A program made the position numbers. From assembly GCA_029974275.1 (NCBI GenBank), contig JARKSN010000086.1, forward strand, positions 1-10,105: DNA of 10,105 nt, read 5' to 3'. Positions 1 to 6,000 of the stretch are shown here, one piece after another. Numbering within the stretch: position 1 is the first letter of the stretch; every line of letters begins with the position of its first letter. The stretch comes from Candidatus Hydrogenedentota bacterium. Lineage in GTDB: Bacteria; Hydrogenedentota; Hydrogenedentia; Hydrogenedentales; SLHB01.

Positions 1-3000
1 GCACAGGGCCGTTCCTCGGCCCAGCAATGCGCGCGCAATCCCAAACGTCAAGGCCACGTTCAAAGCGGCGAGCAGCGCCGAGGGGGCGCGCATGGACGCC
101 TCCCCGTCGCCGAAGAGCAGAACAAACAACGCAAGCAGGTAATTGTGGGTGGTTCCGCTGACGTACAGCGTGCCGCTCGGCAAGAGCGGAAGCCCTGTCT
201 GGGCAATATGTTTGGCGACAAAAATATGTACAAGCTCATCGTGCCACAACGACGGCTTCGCCAGATGCGCAAAGCCCAGAGCAAGCGAAAGCGCAACGCA
301 CGCCCCAAGCGCCGCCCACTCCCAGCGCGCCATGGGCGCTGAACCATTCTCAGGGGCGCGATGCGCGGACAAATCAAGCGACGGATGCATAGGTCTTCAC
401 GTCTCCTCACGCGTTGTACAGGCCCACCGAGTATAGGCGGCCAACGCGGCGCGAGCAACCAGCGCCCACCGTGCGCCAGGAGTTGGACATTCGTATAATA
501 GAACGCGGCACAATTCTTTGACGCCTAGGAACTTTCGTGCACTTCGAATCGGAAAACGAAACGGATCAGAACGGCTCGACGCGTTCGGACAACGGCGCCG
601 TCGATCTGTCCTTGCCGCCGGGGAGGACGCCCGTCGATCAATCCCGCAGAGCCGTCGATGAACGCGCTGAACGCTGCATCGCGCCCGAAGATTTTCGCCC
701 CAAACGCATCAAGATATGCTTGACCTGTTCGCATGGCGGGCATCTTACCGAGATGTTGGAATTGCAGGAGGCCTTCGAGGGACACGACACCTTCTACTTT
801 TGCTACGACGCCGACACGACGCGTCGCTTGCCCAACGCGCATCTCATCCCGAACATGGCGCGCAATCCTGTGGAATTTGTCAAAAACCTGTTCCGTGTCC
901 ATCGACTTTTCAAGCGAGAAAAACCCGATCTCGTCATTTCCACCGGCGCGGAGATCGCCATCCCCGTTGCGATCAACGCCAAATGGCTCGGCATAAAGAT
1001 GCTCTACATCGAATGCGGCGCACAGGTGACGCGCCCCTCCATCACGGGGCGCCTGCTGTACTGGATGGCCGATTGGTTCTACGTGCAATGGCCGGAACTC
1101 TTGCAGCGCTATGGCCCGAAGGCGATGTTGCGCGGCAGCCTGGTTGACGAAGACAGGCCATTCCCCGGCGATCGCAGCGACGAACGCCGCATGAAAGCCT
1201 CGCTCGTGCAACCCGCACAAGTCGGCGCCTTCTCGAGCGACCAACCCCCCATGGGCCTGGGGTACATCGCATCGGTGTTGCAACAGCACGGCTGCGAAGT
1301 GCGGCTGCTCGACGCGAACGTCGAGAAACTCGGCCCCCTGGACGTCACGCGCATCCTCGCCCAGCAACAGCCCGATCTCGTGGGTTTCACGATCACAACC
1401 CCGTTGTTGCCCAGCGCGTTGGCGATTGTGCGGCGCCTGCGCACGCTTCCAAAGCCTCCGGTGCTCATCGCGGGCGGACCGCACGCCACCGTTCTGCCCG
1501 GCGATTTGCTGCAAGACGGCATGTTCGATTACGTCGTGCGTTCCGAAGGCGAAGAGACCATCGCGGAACTGATCGAACGCCTGCTTGCGGGACAAGACGC
1601 CGAGGGCGTCGAGGGCGTTTCATGGCGACGCAACGGCGAGATTGTCCACAACCCGCCGCGAGCGTTGTCGCTGAAATTTGAATCTTTCCCCTATCCCGAT
1701 TGGTCGATCTTTCCGCTTGACCGTTATTCGAGCATGGCGCGACGCAACGACTACGGCCTGCCCATCGCGACGAGCCGCGGCTGCCCCTATGGCTGCACGT
1801 TCTGCTATAAGGGCGTCTACGGCCGCAAGATCCGCATGCGCCGTCCCGAGAACGTCGCCGACGAATGGCAGTTTCTGATCGATCGCTATCGCGTGCGCGA
1901 GATCGCCGTGCTCGACGATGTCTTCACCCTGCGCGCCGACCGCGCGATGGCGGTGTGCCAGCTCCTCATCGAACGCGGCCTGAACCGCGTTCCGTGGAGC
2001 ACCGTCAACGGCATCCGCGTCGACAACGTCACGCCGGAATTGATGCGCGCAATGCACGATGCGGGCTGCTACCGCGTCTATTTCGGCATCGAGTCGGGCG
2101 TCGAGGCCGTCATCCGCAAACTCAACAAACGCATCAAACTCGACGACGTGCGTTACGCCGTCAGGACGGCCCAGGAGGCGGGACTCGAAGTCGGCGGCTA
2201 CTTCATGCTCGGAAACATCGGAGAAACGCAAGCCGACATGGAGCAGACGATTCGCTTTGCGCTCGAACTCGATCCCGAGTACGCTCAGTTCACCATCGCC
2301 ACGCCCTATCCCGGAACGGTGATGTATCAGCAGGTGATGGACGGCGGCAAGCTGCTCATCAACTCCTGGGAGGAACTTGCAACCTATGGCGCCGGCGTCT
2401 ACGAACTCGGCGATATCACCCCCCAAGTCGTCGGCGCGAAATATCGCGAAGCCATTCGCCGCTTCTACCTTCGCCCGAAGACGATCGTGCGACAGATCCC
2501 CAACCTGCTGACGTGGACCGGCTTCAAACACAGCATCCTTGCCGGATGCCTGCTGATTAAACTGGCGTTTTTGGGCGGACGAAAACGCGTCACCGCAAAG
2601 AAAATCTTTCCATGACCAAGCAACGAAACGGAATGCGATGATCTACGCCACCGTGGGCACGATGTTCCTGGACTTTCCCAGGCTGATTCGAAAACTCGAC
2701 GCGATCGCCGAAACCACCGGCGAACGTATCGTCATTCAGACCGGCCTTGGCGCCACGCTTCCGCAACGCTGCGAGTTTTTTGATTTCAAATCGCGCGACG
2801 AAGTCCTCGCGCTGCAGCAAGAGGCGCGCGTCATCGTCTGCCACGCAGGCATTGGCTCCATACTCGATGCATTGTCCGTGCGCAGGCCCTTTGTCGTTGT
2901 GCCGCGACGGCTGCAATTCAATGAGCACCTCAGCGATCATCAACTCGAAATCGCCGAGGCCATTCAACGTCGCGCCTGGGGACGCATGGTGCTCGACATC

Positions 3001-6000
3001 GACGACTTGCCCGAGGCATGCGCCGCACCGCCCGCCGTCTACGCCTCGTATCGCCCCGCAAAACACCGTTTAATCAGCGCCGTCCGCGATGCGATCGAAC
3101 GCGTCGCGGCAGCGAAAAATAGATGATTATTTTTGATCCGGCCTTGTTCCGATACGCCGCCGCCGCCGCCTCCCAAAATCATGTGGTATAGTACATACAG
3201 AGTCGGAACCCTGAACGAGGAGGCGTCGCCATGAAAAACGCATATCTCTTCGATCAGACGCCCTACAAACGTCAAGGGCCCAGAATATCGGCGGCGGGCC
3301 CAAGGCGTTCGGCCATGCCCGGAGACGTCCGAAGGGCGCTATACCGCATGAAAGAGACCCTATCGGGAATCACCCCTGAAGTGAAATGGGGACGCGAACG
3401 ACGCTACCAAGAACTCATGCGCAGTCTGGGCCGCAAGAAGCCATAGCCCCGCGCGGGACACGCGTCCCCATGAGAGCATCGGCCAAGACGATCCCAGAAC
3501 TCGCCACAGAAAGGGTCACGTAGCTATCCGGGGTGATGTCAAACACCCCAAGGGGGGCCCATTGCCCCTTGAAATCCCTCTGGCGCAGGCGAACTTCGCT
3601 GTCCCCCCGAGGCGTATGGACCACATACGTCGTTTCATCGGCATGATGTCCGCGCTGATCGGGAATCCAGACCGAAAGCGTATGCGGGCCCTGTGCCTGC
3701 GGGGGGAAATTCCAACGGCAAGAAGACGGAATGCGCCCCCCCCGAGTGAAATAATAGTGCCCATGAAACGCCGAACGATTGGATTGGTTTGGCCAAAACC
3801 CCTCCAACGCCACGTCCTGGCCACGAATATCCACGATGAACGAGTCCTCCGGCGTTATATAGCGAGGCTTGGCCACAAGGTTTCCGGTGACGGCTGCATG
3901 CGCGCCTTCCTCGAGGACGACGGCATTTTCACCGCTGAACATGTTTGCGGCAATAACGGCGCCCTTCACGTCTTTCCCGATGCGTATGGCCTCCCCCGCC
4001 TTACCGAAACGGCAGCCGTTGACGGCAATCTGGCCCGTCACCGCCTTGACGCACGCCTTGGGTTCGAGCTGGGATCGCCAGTCTAGAAAATGACATTGGT
4101 TGAAGCTGACAAAACCATCGCCCGCCACATGCGCGCACTGGTCGCTCAACCCCCAAAACGCGCAATTGTTGAACTGAACCGTGCCATTGTGGGATTGATC
4201 CACGCAAATCTGCACGGGATTCTCGCCAAATATCGCCACGAACTCGCCATTGGATATCAACAGACCGTAGGGCGCGCTATTTTCAACCCACACGGAAACA
4301 TTGCACGCGTCCGCGCCCAAACCGATGAAGTTGCCATTGCAGACCCCGCTATCCCCCTCGATAAAGCGATACCCCACGCGATATCCCCAGCAAAACGTAT
4401 TGAGCACATGCTGCCAGTCGGTTCGCCCGAAAATGAACGCCTCGCCATGCGATTGCACAAAAGAGCGAAAAACAGGGTTGCCCATCGATTCGGGATAGAA
4501 CGGCCAGAAATGAACGGTGTCGATGCGTCCGATGTCAACGACTCTATCCACCAGGATGCCGCGCCGCAAGGGAGAGCCAAAAACGCGGCTGATCAAATGA
4601 CGGTTGGTCATGTGCCTGCCCATGTGAATGCCCTGGTAGGGATTCACCAGGAGACAATCGATCACGGCGGCGTCTCCTCCCTCCCCGCCTTCCACGCACC
4701 ATGGATACGGCGCGACCTCGCTTCCCGATTGTTCCGGATAGTGCACCGCAAGCCCCTTCAACACGGCATTGGCGCACAACGCAATGAACGGGGCTCCGTC
4801 CTCTTCGCCGCGCCCTTCGTATGCGAGCAACGTGGCGCCGCGCCCCGGCATCCAACGGCGCGGAGAGGTCGCCACGCCCTCAAGCGTAACGTCATTGGGC
4901 ACCGTCACATGCCCTGCAATCGCGCAAAGCCCCGCAGGAAGCCGCACCACCCCGCCGCCGCGATCTCCGCACGCGTCCAAGGCGTTCTGAAGAGCGCCGG
5001 TATTGTCCGTCTGCCCGTCAAGCACGACGCCAAAATCACGGGCATCAATATGATCGCCAGTTTCGAAAGAAATGTTTTTCATATGGGGAAAGGGCCTCCT
5101 TACGCCCAAACACGCTATGATTCCCTGCCGCGCATCGCGCTTGGCCCGGCAGTCCACAAACGGCGAGAGCATACGCTCACGCCCTGGACAAAGCAATTTT
5201 CCCCTGACCAATGCCGCGCTCCCACTGCATGTTCGTGAAAATTCTCGCGCGCAAACCCGATCGTGCGATAAGACCGTGTCCCGCATCACGTTGCATCGTC
5301 CATGAACAACACGGACTAAAGATTGGAGGCTCGATTGCCGATGAACTCTCCAGCGACGGCGTACGGCCCTTGGGCCGTCTCACGAGGCGTTCCCTTCGGG
5401 GGACATAATGCGATGCCCTTCGCCATAAAGGGCATGCAGGGATGCATACCTATGGATATCTCCATCTCCGCTATTTCTCTTCGGTATCAGTATGAAGCGT
5501 ACGCCATTCAAACCTTTGACAGAACTGCTGCGGACGGACAGAACGCCGCAAAGCCGACCTCGATGCTGAACATGCCCCAGGACGTCATTGATTTCGGAAA
5601 GAGCAGAGCCTTTAGCGCGCAAGACGCCATTCGCATCGTCAACGAGCGCATGATGGAGAAACTGCGCGGCGTGGTGGAGGGAGCCCAACAAGCGATCGGC
5701 ATGAACGGCATGGCGATGATTGACACTTCCGCCGAAGCGACCGCCGGACGCATCGCCGACTTCGCATTGGGATTCTTCGAGGCCTGGCGCAAAAACCATG
5801 CTGATCTCGGCGATGACGACGCCCGCAAGCAGTTCGCCAGCTTCATCGGAGCCGCAATCAAGCAGGGAATCGACGAAGCCAGCGGCATCTTAACGGCCCT
5901 GAACGCCCTGACCCCGCAAAACACGTCGCTCATACAAAATATCGCTAGCATCGTCCAGCAACGACTCGACGATTTCGTGTCCGGCAACGCCGATCCCGCG

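Follow-up and report, generated by a model that had tools for sequence, protein, structure and literature searches.

Gene content of the locus

We analyzed a stretch of 10,105 nt (the window) of contig JARKSN010000086.1 from a Candidatus Hydrogenedentota bacterium. At its start lie a truncated PMT_2-type GT-C glycosyltransferase gene, a divergent gene that joins a PssD/Alg14-like glycosyltransferase half to a B12-binding radical SAM enzyme, and a PssE/Alg13-like gene (Table 1). The fused gene is a single intact reading frame of 692 codons with a GTG start, preceded at a distance of 5 nt by AGGA (positions 528 to 531); a scan of the divergent intergenic region for a sigma-70 consensus found no site. 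The PMT_2 match (1.2e-06, residues 82 to 129) belongs to a gene that is cut by the contig end and has its remainder on another contig of this genome, C184. In tblastn, the match stops at window base 4 (query residue 170) and is taken up again at the last base of C184 (query residue 172). Its product is 59% identical to the PMT_2 protein of an unfused cassette (locus L047).

TABLE 1 Features identified in the window
Feature	Positions	Strand	Basis
5' part of PMT_2-type GT-C glycosyltransferase gene, divergent from the fused gene, off contig end	1..390	-	Pfam
Divergent intergenic region, 146 nt	391..536	.	Sequence read
Fused gene: PssD/Alg14-like half, linker, B12-binding domain, radical SAM core	537..2615	+	Pfam, NCBIfam, homologs
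N-terminal extension, residues 1-55	537..701	+	Variable length and sequence among homologs (alignment A2); predicted disorder
PssD/Cps14F/Alg14-like domain, residues 56-205, with CSHGGHLTEM stretch	702..1151	+	NF041549, homologs, Foldseek
Linker, residues 206-222, DEDRPFPGDRSDERRMK, ~17 residues	1152..1202	+	Alignments A4, A1, A2
B12-binding Rossmann domain, residues 231-345	1227..1571	+	PF02310
Radical SAM core, residues 412-575	1770..2261	+	PF04055
Cluster motif CxxxCxxC (C416-x3-C420-x2-C423)	1782..1805	+	Invariant cysteines
C-terminal moderately hydrophobic helix, residues 660-679	2514..2573	+	Helix in AlphaFold2 model
PssE/Cps14G/Alg13-like gene, 162 aa	2638..3126	+	Glyco_tran_28_C, NF041548

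The three Pfam domains of the fused protein occur together in 36 further proteins (96 to 56% identity), the fusion is present in nine genomes of our phylum set, and contigs from four public runs of four studies, one of which may be the source sample, cover the gene without an indel. The domain junction is spanned by one public-run contig with 0 differences and by a contig of another strain with 37 substitutions and 0 gaps. Thus, we conclude that the fusion of the PssD-like half to the B12 radical SAM enzyme is not an assembly artifact.

Anatomy of the fused protein and its partner

In GT-B enzymes, the acceptor is held by the N-terminal half. The PssD-like domain matches the PssD/Cps14F model NF041549 over residues 61 to 202 (125.7 bits; cut-off, 110) and the Pfam Alg14 model over residues 111 to 198 (4.9e-14), aligns to MurG in Foldseek, and has a conserved CSHGGHLTEM stretch; it is 58 to 75% identical to stand-alone PssD proteins of 152 to 175 aa. 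By these matches, it represents one Rossmann half, the N-terminal one on the acceptor side, of a split GT28-type GT-B glycosyltransferase. The C-terminal, nucleotide-sugar-side half is, again by homology, the product of the PssE-like gene, which matches Glyco_tran_28_C (2.4e-13, 50.9 bits; cut-off, 22) and scores 91.9 bits with NF041548, below that model's cut-off of 120. A genome-wide survey's note had placed an Alg13-type partner gene 25 nt downstream; such a gene directly follows the fused gene in all nine fused loci, and the 25 nt include the stop codon, the spacer proper being 22 nt (2616 to 2637). PssD and PssE are likewise adjacent in 10 of 12 unfused loci, and they form single chains in three Hydrogenedentota proteins (P0127, P0219, and P0225). 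The pssD and pssE genes have been called “halves of one GT” (PMC9961541).

The radical SAM part scores above the cut-offs for PF02310 (78.5 against 32.1 bits, 4.7e-22) and PF04055 (83.7 against 29.5 bits, 2.1e-23). The AGG.H.T motif at residues 312 to 318 is invariant in alignment A2, as are the three cluster cysteines (38 of 38 fused proteins). Judged by these domains and motifs, it is a complete class-B (B12-binding) radical SAM enzyme, as the survey's note had held. Stand-alone PssD proteins end at the linker, and stand-alone radical SAM relatives start just past it (alignments A4, A1, and A2). Two linker residues, D212 and S214, hardly vary across the 38 fused proteins. The conserved linker and the invariant cysteines suggest that the fused proteins are under purifying selection.

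The PssD-like part had been described as a membrane subunit or anchor. A search for transmembrane helices in the 692-aa protein found none, and the bacterial PssD model does not extend upstream of the first beta strand. AlphaFold2 gives a pLDDT below 50 at residues 1 to 31 and 37 to 45 of the N-terminal extension. The C-terminal helix, which carries a conserved TWTG...LL..LA..GG pattern, has a Kyte-Doolittle mean of 1.41 over 19 residues, below the typical transmembrane value; it may make peripheral contact with the membrane. The best explanation is that the fused protein is cytoplasmic and peripherally membrane bound at most.

Distribution and origin of the fusion

Among 135 Hydrogenedentota genomes, the fusion was found in 9 of the 54 from one family and in none of the other 81. 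Every organism name given for a fused protein is Hydrogenedentes, in agreement with the survey. The shorter split forms, for which the survey had not searched, are frequent: stand-alone PssD is the common form and has no radical SAM gene alongside. About 40 genomes carry a cassette that lacks any radical SAM gene, in the order GT-C (PMT_2), PssD, PssE, GT2, GacI-like GT2, and GacJ/DUF2304, with the first gene divergent. The best NCBIfam match of the GacI-like GT2 (235 to 240 aa) is PpgS (103 to 112 bits; cut-off, 370), and the DUF2304 protein scores 70 bits (cut-off, 25.5). In the source genome, the GT2-GT2-DUF2304 trio lies on a separate contig, C248. The locus belongs to a glycan cassette, in support of the survey's reading.

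The cassette without radical SAM is the ancestral state. The PssD of the fusion is, by sequence, an ortholog of the cassette PssD (58 to 75% identity) and the cassette order is kept; therefore, the radical SAM part was inserted into a functioning glycan operon, precisely at the boundary of PssD and PssE. The 38 fused radical SAM parts lie on one side of a branch with an SH-aLRT value of 100; the fusion arose once. We also observed decay. In P0042, the radical SAM part remains but the PssD domain lacks its GGH motif; P0043, P0044, P0045, and P0088 retain PssD and have lost the CxxxCxxC stretch. In the last three, most of the C-terminal part of the radical SAM enzyme is also gone, while P0043 has internal deletions and retains its C-terminal tail. 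Since the PssD and radical SAM modules decay separately, neither catalysis strictly needs the other.

Proposed function and alternatives

We lean toward reading the fused protein as an enzyme with two functions in a pathway for lipid-carrier-linked glycans, whose radical SAM part would alter a sugar of the lipid-linked intermediate of PssD/PssE. The PssD-like domain would pair with the separately encoded PssE as one GT28-type GT-B glycosyltransferase. Like PssD/PssE, Cps14F/Cps14G, WelK, and Alg14/Alg13, this enzyme would use a nucleotide sugar to glycosylate an acceptor linked to polyprenyl-(di)phosphate. The radical SAM enzyme, joined end to start to the acceptor-side half, would abstract a hydrogen from a sugar of this same intermediate, be it acceptor or product, and alter its carbon skeleton. 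Candidate reactions, in falling order, are C-methylation, ring contraction of the HpnJ/Cds type, and deoxygenation of the AprD4 type. The companion GT2 and the GacI/PpgS-like GT2 with its GacJ/DUF2304 helper, a putative polyprenyl-phosphate-sugar synthase, would extend and use the intermediate, and the divergent PMT_2 GT-C transferase would put the sugar(s) on a periplasmic acceptor. If this reading is true, a sugar is probably chemically altered while still on its membrane lipid carrier. A role in both building and tailoring glycans is likely; to this extent the bifunctional machine imagined by the survey's note survives, without its membrane anchor, the novelty of its coupling, or a route specific to the phylum. 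Against our reading count the roughly 40 genomes whose cassette lacks a radical SAM gene, the separate decay of the two modules, and the position of the GT2-GT2-DUF2304 trio on a different contig of the source genome.

The sister group of the fused radical SAM parts consists of 21 stand-alone enzymes. Genes for GT2, GT4, sugar epimerase, aminotransferase, and STT3 proteins surround the four closest genomic relatives, and two of these four loci contain strong orthologs of the cassette GT2, GacI-like GT2, and DUF2304 (in L059 and L060, hmmsearch E values of 1e-112 to 1e-15 for the 330-aa GT2, the 240-aa GT2, and DUF2304). Such cassettes of Omnitrophota and Patescibacteria, in which the closest stand-alone relatives are found, contradict a route special to Hydrogenedentota. 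Outside the phylum, GT2 lies within 3 kb of a radical SAM relative in 23 of 77 loci and within 300 nt in 15, both lower bounds since the HMMs were lineage built. These neighborhoods link the radical SAM family to glycans, and the fused part derives from the stand-alone family of the Omnitrophota/Patescibacteria GT2/GacI/GacJ cassettes.

Because the closest stand-alone relatives co-occur with GT2/GacI/GacJ and never adjoin PssD/PssE (HMMs of the latter matched only the three Hydrogenedentota loci among 80), the radical SAM enzyme may originally have been partnered with another step of the pathway, which counts against our preferred reading. It could modify the polyprenyl-phosphate sugar made by GacI/GacJ or whatever the 330-aa GT2 makes, with the PssD fusion only fixing stoichiometry or bringing the enzyme to a membrane-proximal assembly site. 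The independent decay of the two modules agrees with this alternative, as do triads of B12 radical SAM, GT2, and LPG_synthase_TM genes in Anaerolineae, which resemble HpnJ, HpnI, and HpnL (HpnL belongs to the LPG_synthase_TM family). We nevertheless consider it unlikely: PssD is the fusion partner kept across the clade, the linker is conserved, and in genome G000 the fused gene has not parted from PssE and PMT_2, with the trio of GT2, GacI, and GacJ genes located elsewhere.

Structure prediction also bears on this choice. The AlphaFold2 model of the whole chain has a mean pLDDT of 83.0 and a pTM of 0.84, which might mean that the two modules are placed in a definite way relative to each other. 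When the radical SAM part was offered as a separate chain to the PssD domain and PssE, the complex scored 0.58, against 0.00 for the best of three controls; this falls in a weak support band. Of the 157 solved complexes and 215 mismatched pairs used to calibrate the tool, 116 and 2, respectively, passed its mark; among those that passed, scores of ≤0.60 accounted for just 18 solved complexes but for both mismatches. Contact agreement between runs was at least 94%, and partner pLDDT was at least 73. The predicted docking vanished when PssE was swapped for an unrelated protein (0.00 versus 0.58), which speaks against a substrate elsewhere in the pathway. On our preferred reading, the radical SAM part would act on the glycosyltransferase's own lipid-linked substrate.

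The chemistry is not readable from homology because every curated radical SAM family scores far below its cut-off. HpnJ is the top NCBIfam match, with 187 bits for the fused part and 217 to 243 bits for sister enzymes against a cut-off of 578, and identity as HpnJ is ruled out. Foldseek comparison to solved B12-type radical SAM enzymes gave target TM-scores of 0.73 to 0.75 at 23 to 24% identity, with MgmA (9ccb) at rank 1 and AprD4 (6fd2) at 0.75; in a sequence search, these two had E values of 3.8e-28 and 1.9e-24. Two of these nearest relatives, HpnJ and AprD4, have sugars as substrates, which favors our reading.

The proximity to MgmA, a protein glutamine C-methyltransferase, and sub-cut-off matches to lipid-acting families (HpnR, 113 bits; a ladderane-type lipid enzyme, 119 bits) would suit a non-sugar substrate. 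This could be a lipid, such as the polyprenyl carrier, by analogy with HpnP/HpnR and the lipid radical SAM enzymes of archaea, or a side chain of a protein, by analogy with MgmA. PMT_2 proteins could be protein glycosyltransferases. In the source genome, our recount gave 18 B12-binding and 33 PMT_2 domain matches rather than the 14 and 25 genes of the survey, and 6 of the 18 B12 domains, on four contigs, lie within 5 kb of PMT_2 (rough binomial P of 0.03); the survey had noted 4 of 14 within two genes of PMT_2. We regard a non-sugar substrate as quite improbable. The lipid-family scores are all far under their cut-offs, the genes that recur as neighbors encode glycosyltransferases rather than lipid synthesis or peptide precursors, and the cassettes scanned showed no gene of isoprenoid type or resembling a precursor peptide.

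Least credible is the absence of any functional coupling, with a radical SAM gene that landed between pssD and pssE and lost its own start and the upstream stop, or with one part inactive here: decay in both directions and the restriction of the fusion to 9 of 135 genomes would fit, but all motifs of both parts are kept in 37 of 42 fused-type proteins, down to 56% identity, the linker is conserved, four independent assemblies have zero frame breaks, and the fused gene of the window has every invariant residue of alignment A2.

Comparison with known systems

PssD/PssE of Rhizobium leguminosarum, Cps14F/Cps14G of Streptococcus pneumoniae, WelK/GelK, and eukaryotic Alg14/Alg13 are GT28-like enzymes, split or single chain, that act on a lipid-linked sugar. 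The locus resembles them in its adjacent genes for N- and C-terminal Rossmann halves, its above-cut-off PssD match, and the single-chain PssD-PssE forms of the phylum. Unlike in these systems, the PssD half bears a 470-residue B12 radical SAM enzyme at its C terminus, and PssE falls below the curated cut-off (91.9 versus 120). Yeast Alg14 has a transmembrane anchor, whereas the fused protein has none.

In GacI/GacJ/GacL (group A carbohydrate) and PpgS/Rv3632 (GalN of mycobacterial arabinogalactan), a GT2 and a DUF2304 protein make polyprenyl-phosphate-HexNAc, and a GT-C enzyme transfers the sugar outside the cytoplasm. The cassette is similar, with a PpgS-like GT2, DUF2304 after it, and a PMT_2 GT-C; however, its PpgS score is below the cut-off, and the known systems have neither PssD/PssE nor radical SAM. 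They are a precedent for the companion genes, GacJ being described as DUF2304 with Rv3632 as its homolog and GacL as GT-C (bioRxiv 10.1101/180810).

In hopanoid side-chain synthesis (HpnI, HpnK, and HpnJ) and with calditol synthase (Cds), a lipid receives a sugar from a glycosyltransferase and a radical SAM enzyme then contracts the ring of that sugar. This glycosylate-then-reshape logic also fits the cassette, HpnJ being the best curated family, and the Anaerolineae relatives, next to GT2 and an LPG_synthase_TM protein, recall HpnI and HpnL. HpnJ and Cds are stand-alone proteins, whereas here the radical SAM enzyme is fused; HpnK-type deacetylase and hopanoid genes were absent from the cassettes examined. 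HpnI, HpnK, HpnJ, and Cds set the precedent for radical SAM reshaping of a sugar that a lipid already carries, the mechanisms of HpnJ and Cds being themselves only proposed (PMC13459092).

With MgmA/QCMT, AprD4, TsrM, OxsB, CysS, and TokK, the radical SAM part shares a Rossmann B12-type domain and a radical SAM barrel, at only 23 to 24% identity to the solved enzymes, none of which is fused to a glycosyltransferase. Substrates in this group include protein glutamine, paromamine, tryptophan, and carbapenem; AprD4 acts on an aminoglycoside sugar diol, whereas MgmA, although nearest in structure, methylates a protein.

In the literature searched, we found no characterized fusion of a B12 radical SAM enzyme to a glycosyltransferase. 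The coupling itself is not new, contrary to the survey's claim: three uncharacterized giant database proteins (P0247, P0248, and P0252) combine B12 radical SAM with GT2, GT4, and methyltransferase domains, their radical SAM parts being only 28 to 31% identical to the fused part. What sets the present fusion apart is that its partner is one half of a split GT-B glycosyltransferase, with the other half a separate protein.

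A half-glycosyltransferase is fused to a B12 radical SAM module

The genome-wide survey's note had proposed that an Alg14-type half of a split glycosyltransferase is fused to a B12-binding radical SAM (rSAM) enzyme, with an Alg13-type partner encoded next to it. Homologues, nine genomes, and contigs from public sequencing runs confirm this arrangement. The full set of three Pfam domains recurs in another 36 proteins (96 to 56% identity), of which the five with organism names are all from Hydrogenedentes. The fused gene is also covered by contigs from four public runs, belonging to four metagenome studies (wastewater, digester, and sludge), one of these runs possibly being the source sample; the contigs show zero insertions or deletions across 537-2615. 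The domain junction is spanned by one identical contig and by one from a ∼96-98% identical strain.

Features of the window and of the fused protein (nucleotide positions for genes, residues for parts of the protein)
Feature	Position	Strand	Remarks
PMT_2 GT-C gene, start portion	390..1	-	leaves contig at its edge
Fused gene	537-2615	+	692 aa
N-terminal extension	residues 1-55		polar, predicted disordered
PssD/Cps14F/Alg14-like domain	residues ∼56-205		NF041549
Linker	residues 206-222
B12-binding domain	residues 231-345		Pfam PF02310
Radical SAM core	residues 412-575		Pfam PF04055; C416-x3-C420-x2-C423
C-terminal helix	residues 660-679
PssE-like gene	2638-3126	+	starts 22 nt past fused gene
Golvesin_C gene	3415-5289	-	624-aa protein; weak pectate-lyase-like N-terminal match, Golvesin_C (5.6e-15)
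DUF5610 gene	5323-6033	+	236 aa
NHL-repeat gene	6046-8718	-	890 aa, exported; Pfam NHL 1e-101
Phosphofructokinase gene	after NHL-repeat gene	-

The N-terminal half belongs to the PssD/Cps14F family (125.7 bits on NF041549 against a cut-off of 110, residues 61-202) and also matches Pfam Alg14 (53.1 bits, cut-off 27). From this family membership, it would take part in glycosyl transfer to a polyprenyl-diphosphate-linked sugar. The PssE-like protein scored 91.9 bits on NF041548 (cut-off 120) and 50.9 bits on PF04101, Glyco_tran_28_C (cut-off 22); by sequence, its closest PDB entries are a GT1-type enzyme (4.9e-06) and Alg13 (0.0019). Eukaryotic Alg14 has an N-terminal transmembrane segment that brings the catalytic subunit to the membrane, and the survey had read the PssD part as such an anchor. 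This reading fails: we saw no transmembrane-like 19-residue hydropathy window outside the Rossmann core strands, and the first 55 residues are polar and disordered.

The rSAM part falls into class B, with 78.5 bits on PF02310 (cut-off 32.1) and 83.7 on PF04055 (cut-off 29.5), and C416, C420, and C423 are invariant in all 38 aligned fused proteins. For the C-terminal two thirds, Foldseek ranked MgmA, AprD4, TsrM, OxsB, CysS, and TokK, the rSAM fold matching MgmA, TsrM, OxsB, CysS, and TokK; for the N-terminal part, it ranked MurG. With its B12-binding domain, the protein may bind and use cobalamin; AprD4, however, has the domain and is not known to use cobalamin. An AlphaFold2 model from the 38-row alignment reached a pLDDT of 83.0 and a pTM of 0.84. 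Some Foldseek alignments were as long as MurG (∼340 columns), as if the B12 domain mimicked the absent C-terminal half of a GT-B enzyme; we rejected this idea, since the rmsd is 17-19 Å and both are Rossmann folds. The join is a clean end-to-start fusion, because stand-alone PssD proteins end there ("...GSLIDE" plus a few residues) and stand-alone rSAM relatives begin there ("...LVQP").

The fusion is confined to one family of Hydrogenedentota

Of 135 Hydrogenedentota genomes, eight have a full-length match, and in a ninth the gene is divided between two contig ends. The fused gene thus occurs in 9 of the 54 genomes of the window's own family versus 0 of the 81 others. Proteins of 1212-3460 aa included no PssD-rSAM-PssE triple fusion, a blank that is weak evidence by the search tool's own warning, and the 120 matches listed included no PF04101-bearing protein of ∼850 aa.

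The rSAM tree (38 fused parts and 79 stand-alone proteins) places all fused parts on one side of a branch with an SH-aLRT of 100, with 21 stand-alone proteins as their sister group (support of 99, midpoint rooting), a topology that agrees with one fusion event. The PssD tree (38 fused, 107 stand-alone, and 13 longer proteins) has a resolution too low for counting such events: the best tree takes 17 changes, the starred branches require only 2, and the branch of the fused protein P0042 is very long. The survey's note had raised a split form; a stand-alone PssD gene beside a close rSAM relative was found in none of 12 loci with unfused PssD and none of 80 loci of rSAM relatives.

PssD belongs to a conserved glycan cassette

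Stand-alone PssD proteins of ∼156-175 aa, 58-72% identical to residues 55-210, occur in ∼40 other genomes of the phylum, a count of 41 match rows. At E ≤ 1e-10, 508 short PssD proteins were retrieved from a wider protein collection, the best 120 of these 508 being 60-75% identical. For 12 unfused loci and 8 additional fused ones, genes were predicted by a GC3-based caller that had been verified on the window and were then scanned with Pfam. The unfused order is a divergent PMT_2 gene followed by PssD, PssE, GT2 (330-368 aa), GT2 (235-260 aa), and DUF2304 (∼127 aa); the five codirectional genes all occur in 10 of 12 loci. A PssE-like gene lies downstream of the fused gene in all nine fused loci, with a GH38 gene interposed in L044. 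The 330-aa GT2 follows PssE in five of the nine, while the GT2-DUF2304 pair lies within the fetched stretch in four and the upstream PMT_2 gene in four, counts that are limited by the early ends of several contigs.

The window is the complete contig C313 (10,105 bases) of a genome assembled as 4.38 Mb in 342 contigs, which the organism names of close homologues assign to Candidatus Hydrogenedentes/Hydrogenedentota. Its bases 1-4 and the end of contig C184 (L139:7710-8885, -) meet inside the PMT_2 gene. The PMT_2 match stops at query residue 170 in the window and restarts at residue 172 on C184; therefore, the two contigs are neighbors. Past this gene, C184 carries a second PMT_2-like gene, then an LPG_synthase_TM protein and ferrochelatase. 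The trio of GT2 (344 aa), GT2 (235 aa), and DUF2304 is found in the same genome on contig C248, behind a different PMT/PMT_2 gene. The window's genes after PssE are unrelated to the cassette. The Golvesin_C and DUF5610 genes lie outside the cassette in relatives, and the NHL-repeat protein has two dockerin-like/EF-hand-like repeats, bacterial TSP3 repeats, two ∼90-residue repeated modules, and at least 11 NHL repeats. In an Rfam scan of the entire window, no family, and hence no cobalamin riboswitch, reached its gathering score; in bases 1-3600, a sigma-70 promoter scan gave zero sites, and two terminator-like sites were seen, below the shuffled mean of 4.4.

The cassette, as distinct from the fused gene, has the makeup of a GacI/GacJ/GacL-type system: the short GT2 gene (235-261 aa) adjoins DUF2304 in L047, L045, L040, L042, L044, and C248, with PMT_2 alongside. 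PpgS is the best NCBIfam match of this GT2, which scored 103-112 bits where the cut-off is 370. By one preprint's account, GacJ, a DUF2304 protein, binds and stimulates GacI, a GT2 enzyme producing GlcNAc-P-undecaprenol; the GT-C enzyme GacL then moves the GlcNAc, and Rv3632 plays GacJ's role for PpgS (bioRxiv 10.1101/180810). PssD and PssE are described as two halves of one glycosyltransferase (PMC9961541).

PssD is often a fusion partner in Hydrogenedentota. Single-chain PssD-PssE proteins of 329-360 aa (P0127, P0219, and P0225) occur in the phylum, as do ∼305-311-aa forms in which Alg14 is the only recognized domain; two loci (L056 and L057) have longer PssD-containing open reading frames (ORFs) adjoining or joined to GT2-like sequence. 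At two fused loci, a second B12 radical SAM gene lies immediately upstream of the fused gene (L040:10413-12176, -, 588 aa, genome G093; L044:6366-7997, +, 544 aa, genome G113). This second gene is a different one (29-33% identical), and the two products are 55% identical to each other; their top NCBIfam match is a P-methyltransferase family (228 bits, cut-off 575), and no orthologue was found in the window's genome, where the best match is 31%.

Relatives of the rSAM part reside in sugar cassettes

Paralogues of the rSAM part within the genome and phylum are only 26-37% identical to it, and the stand-alone enzymes found in other phyla (455-475 aa) are 41-47% identical. We fetched 80 loci of such relatives, 3 from Hydrogenedentota and 77 from outside. 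The four closest outside relatives (44-48% identity) are all in sugar cassettes. L058 and L060 (the latter from Omnitrophota) encode DUF763, an epimerase/dehydratase, a flavoprotein, GT4, and three tandem B12 radical SAM enzymes; in L060, GT2 (354 aa), GT2 (242 aa), and DUF2304 follow, while the L058 record stops inside the third rSAM gene. The tandem rSAM genes come after GT4, at L060:6516-10822 and L058:6528-10345. The third tandem enzyme of L060 scored 385 bits on the HpnJ model (cut-off 578), and hopanoid genes were not seen. L059, from Patescibacteria, has the order STT3 (-), GT2 (246 aa), DUF2304, a second rSAM gene, the relative, and a GT2-TPR protein; L062, from Omnitrophota, has GT2 genes, a DegT aminotransferase, the relative, and an ATP-grasp gene.

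Profiles built from the Hydrogenedentota cassette recognized L059 and L060, respectively, with GT2(330) at 1e-112 and 1e-101, GT2(240) at 1e-77 and 1e-71, and DUF2304 at 7e-15 and 7e-18. Matches to the PssD and PssE profiles were restricted to the three Hydrogenedentota loci of the 80. Across the 77 outside loci, a GT2 gene lies within 3 kb of the relative in at least 23 and within 300 nt in at least 15. GT2 matches adjoin the rSAM gene in L083, L089, L106, L112, and L124. Three Anaerolineae/Chloroflexota loci (L070, L072, and L076) have a B12 radical SAM gene, then GT2 and an LPG_synthase_TM (UPF0104) membrane protein, a set reminiscent of hpnJ, hpnI, and hpnL.

The rSAM part stayed below the equivalog cut-offs of enzymes with assigned functions. 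It scored 187.3 bits on HpnJ (TIGR03471; cut-off 577.6), with hpn genes absent from the loci, 184.9 on BchE (481), 129.5 on MgmA/QCMT (TIGR04014; 360), 113.7 on the PhpK type (600), 113.1 on HpnR (650), and 102.1 on AprD4 (NF033070; 500); ApyD (170 bits) and the P-methyltransferase family (158 bits) were also below cut-off. HpnJ is likewise the top match of the sister stand-alone enzymes, at 217-243 bits. The PDB sequence matches are MgmA (9ccb, 3.8e-28), AprD4 (6fd2, 1.9e-24), and TokK (1.4e-11).

Are the two activities physically coupled?

The linker and both modules are conserved in the alignment of fused proteins, and the high whole-chain pTM would suggest a fixed arrangement of the modules. 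For complex prediction, we divided the fused protein into the PssD domain and the rSAM part and added PssE as a chain. The rSAM chain scored 0.58 (runs of 0.57, 0.61, and 0.58) versus 0.00 for the best control, which the tool rates as "weak support"; a control with PssE substituted also gave 0.00. Contact agreement was at least 94% and partner pLDDT at least 73. Of the 157 solved complexes used in calibration, 116 reached the mark, as did 2 of the 215 mismatches; at ≤0.60, it was reached by only 18 of the 157 and by both of these mismatches.

Other observations argue against strict coupling. Either module can decay separately: P0042 has a degenerate PssD part, with the GGH stretch gone, and an intact rSAM part, whereas the PssD part is intact and the rSAM part is without the CxxxCxxC stretch in P0043, P0044, P0045, and P0088. 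The last three also lack most of the rSAM barrel and are unlikely to be cut by contig ends, because their contigs are 16.6-29.5 kb; P0043, on a 2.9-kb contig, retains more, including the C-terminal tail. In addition, the older association of the rSAM family is with GT2/GacI/GacJ genes and not with PssD/PssE. A 388-aa ORF in genome G131 (L017:1095-2261, -) that matches query residues 53-266 only may be a decayed fusion.

A tentative and rather improbable proposal is that PssD-rSAM and PssE form a stable three-module machine, in which a polyprenyl-linked sugar is handed directly between the glycosyltransferase and cobalamin rSAM sites. Envelope or protein glycans would thereby receive, while still being assembled on the lipid carrier, a sugar that is C-methylated, deoxygenated, or carbocyclic. 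If this held, the phylum's many B12 radical SAM genes beside GT-C genes would be parts of like chemistry. The window's genome has 18 B12-binding and 33 PMT_2 domain matches, although not every B12 match is a radical SAM enzyme. Six of the B12 domains are ≤5 kb from a PMT_2 domain, spread over 4 of 16 contigs; such proximity applies to ∼7.5% of the genome, hence a rough binomial P of 0.03. On contig C122 (15.8-22.1 kb), one PMT_2 domain is surrounded by three B12 domains; C104 (17.4-22.7 kb) has an rSAM gene between two PMT_2 genes, and C151 (8.2-10.5 kb) has a B12 radical SAM gene within 5 kb of PMT_2.

Comparison with known systems

Part of the survey's interpretation holds up: the fused gene belongs to a glycan cassette, and a role in glycan building and tailoring is likely. 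Besides the membrane anchor, the uniqueness of the design has to be given up. The coupling of a glycosyltransferase to a cobalamin radical SAM enzyme is not a new design, because other glycosyltransferase-radical-SAM fusions exist. What is new is that the partner is one half of a split glycosyltransferase; B12 radical SAM enzymes linked with glycosyltransferases recur as an uncharacterized theme. Our literature search found no published account of a fusion of Alg14, or of any glycosyltransferase, to a cobalamin radical SAM enzyme.

The B12 radical SAM superfamily is large, and reactions are known for a minority of its members; the fused family provides a natural substrate clue for one orphan clade, as a clearly bounded, testable example. 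The unfused sister genomes are a ready comparison for locating the modified sugar. Described tailoring of surface sugars in bacteria takes place either at the level of the nucleotide sugar or following polymerization, and radical tailoring at the lipid-carrier stage is not known for bacterial glycans except on hopanoid head groups. The physical joining of a radical enzyme to the half of a lipid-intermediate glycosyltransferase that binds the acceptor points to tailoring on the lipid carrier itself.

Sugar tailoring is the reaction we infer for the rSAM part. Given the precedents of GacI/GacJ/GacL, pssD/pssE, and HpnI/HpnK/HpnJ/Cds, the most economical model is a lipid-carrier-linked glycan pathway to which one lineage added radical sugar tailoring by joining it to the half of the PssD/PssE transferase on the acceptor side. 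The only partial precedents that we found are HpnJ and the calditol synthase Cds, whose mechanisms are both proposals. As outlined in one source, HpnI puts GlcNAc on a hopanoid and HpnK then removes the acetyl group; ring contraction by the radical SAM enzyme HpnJ is the proposed next step, and the same contraction is proposed for Cds on an archaeal lipid (PMC13459092).
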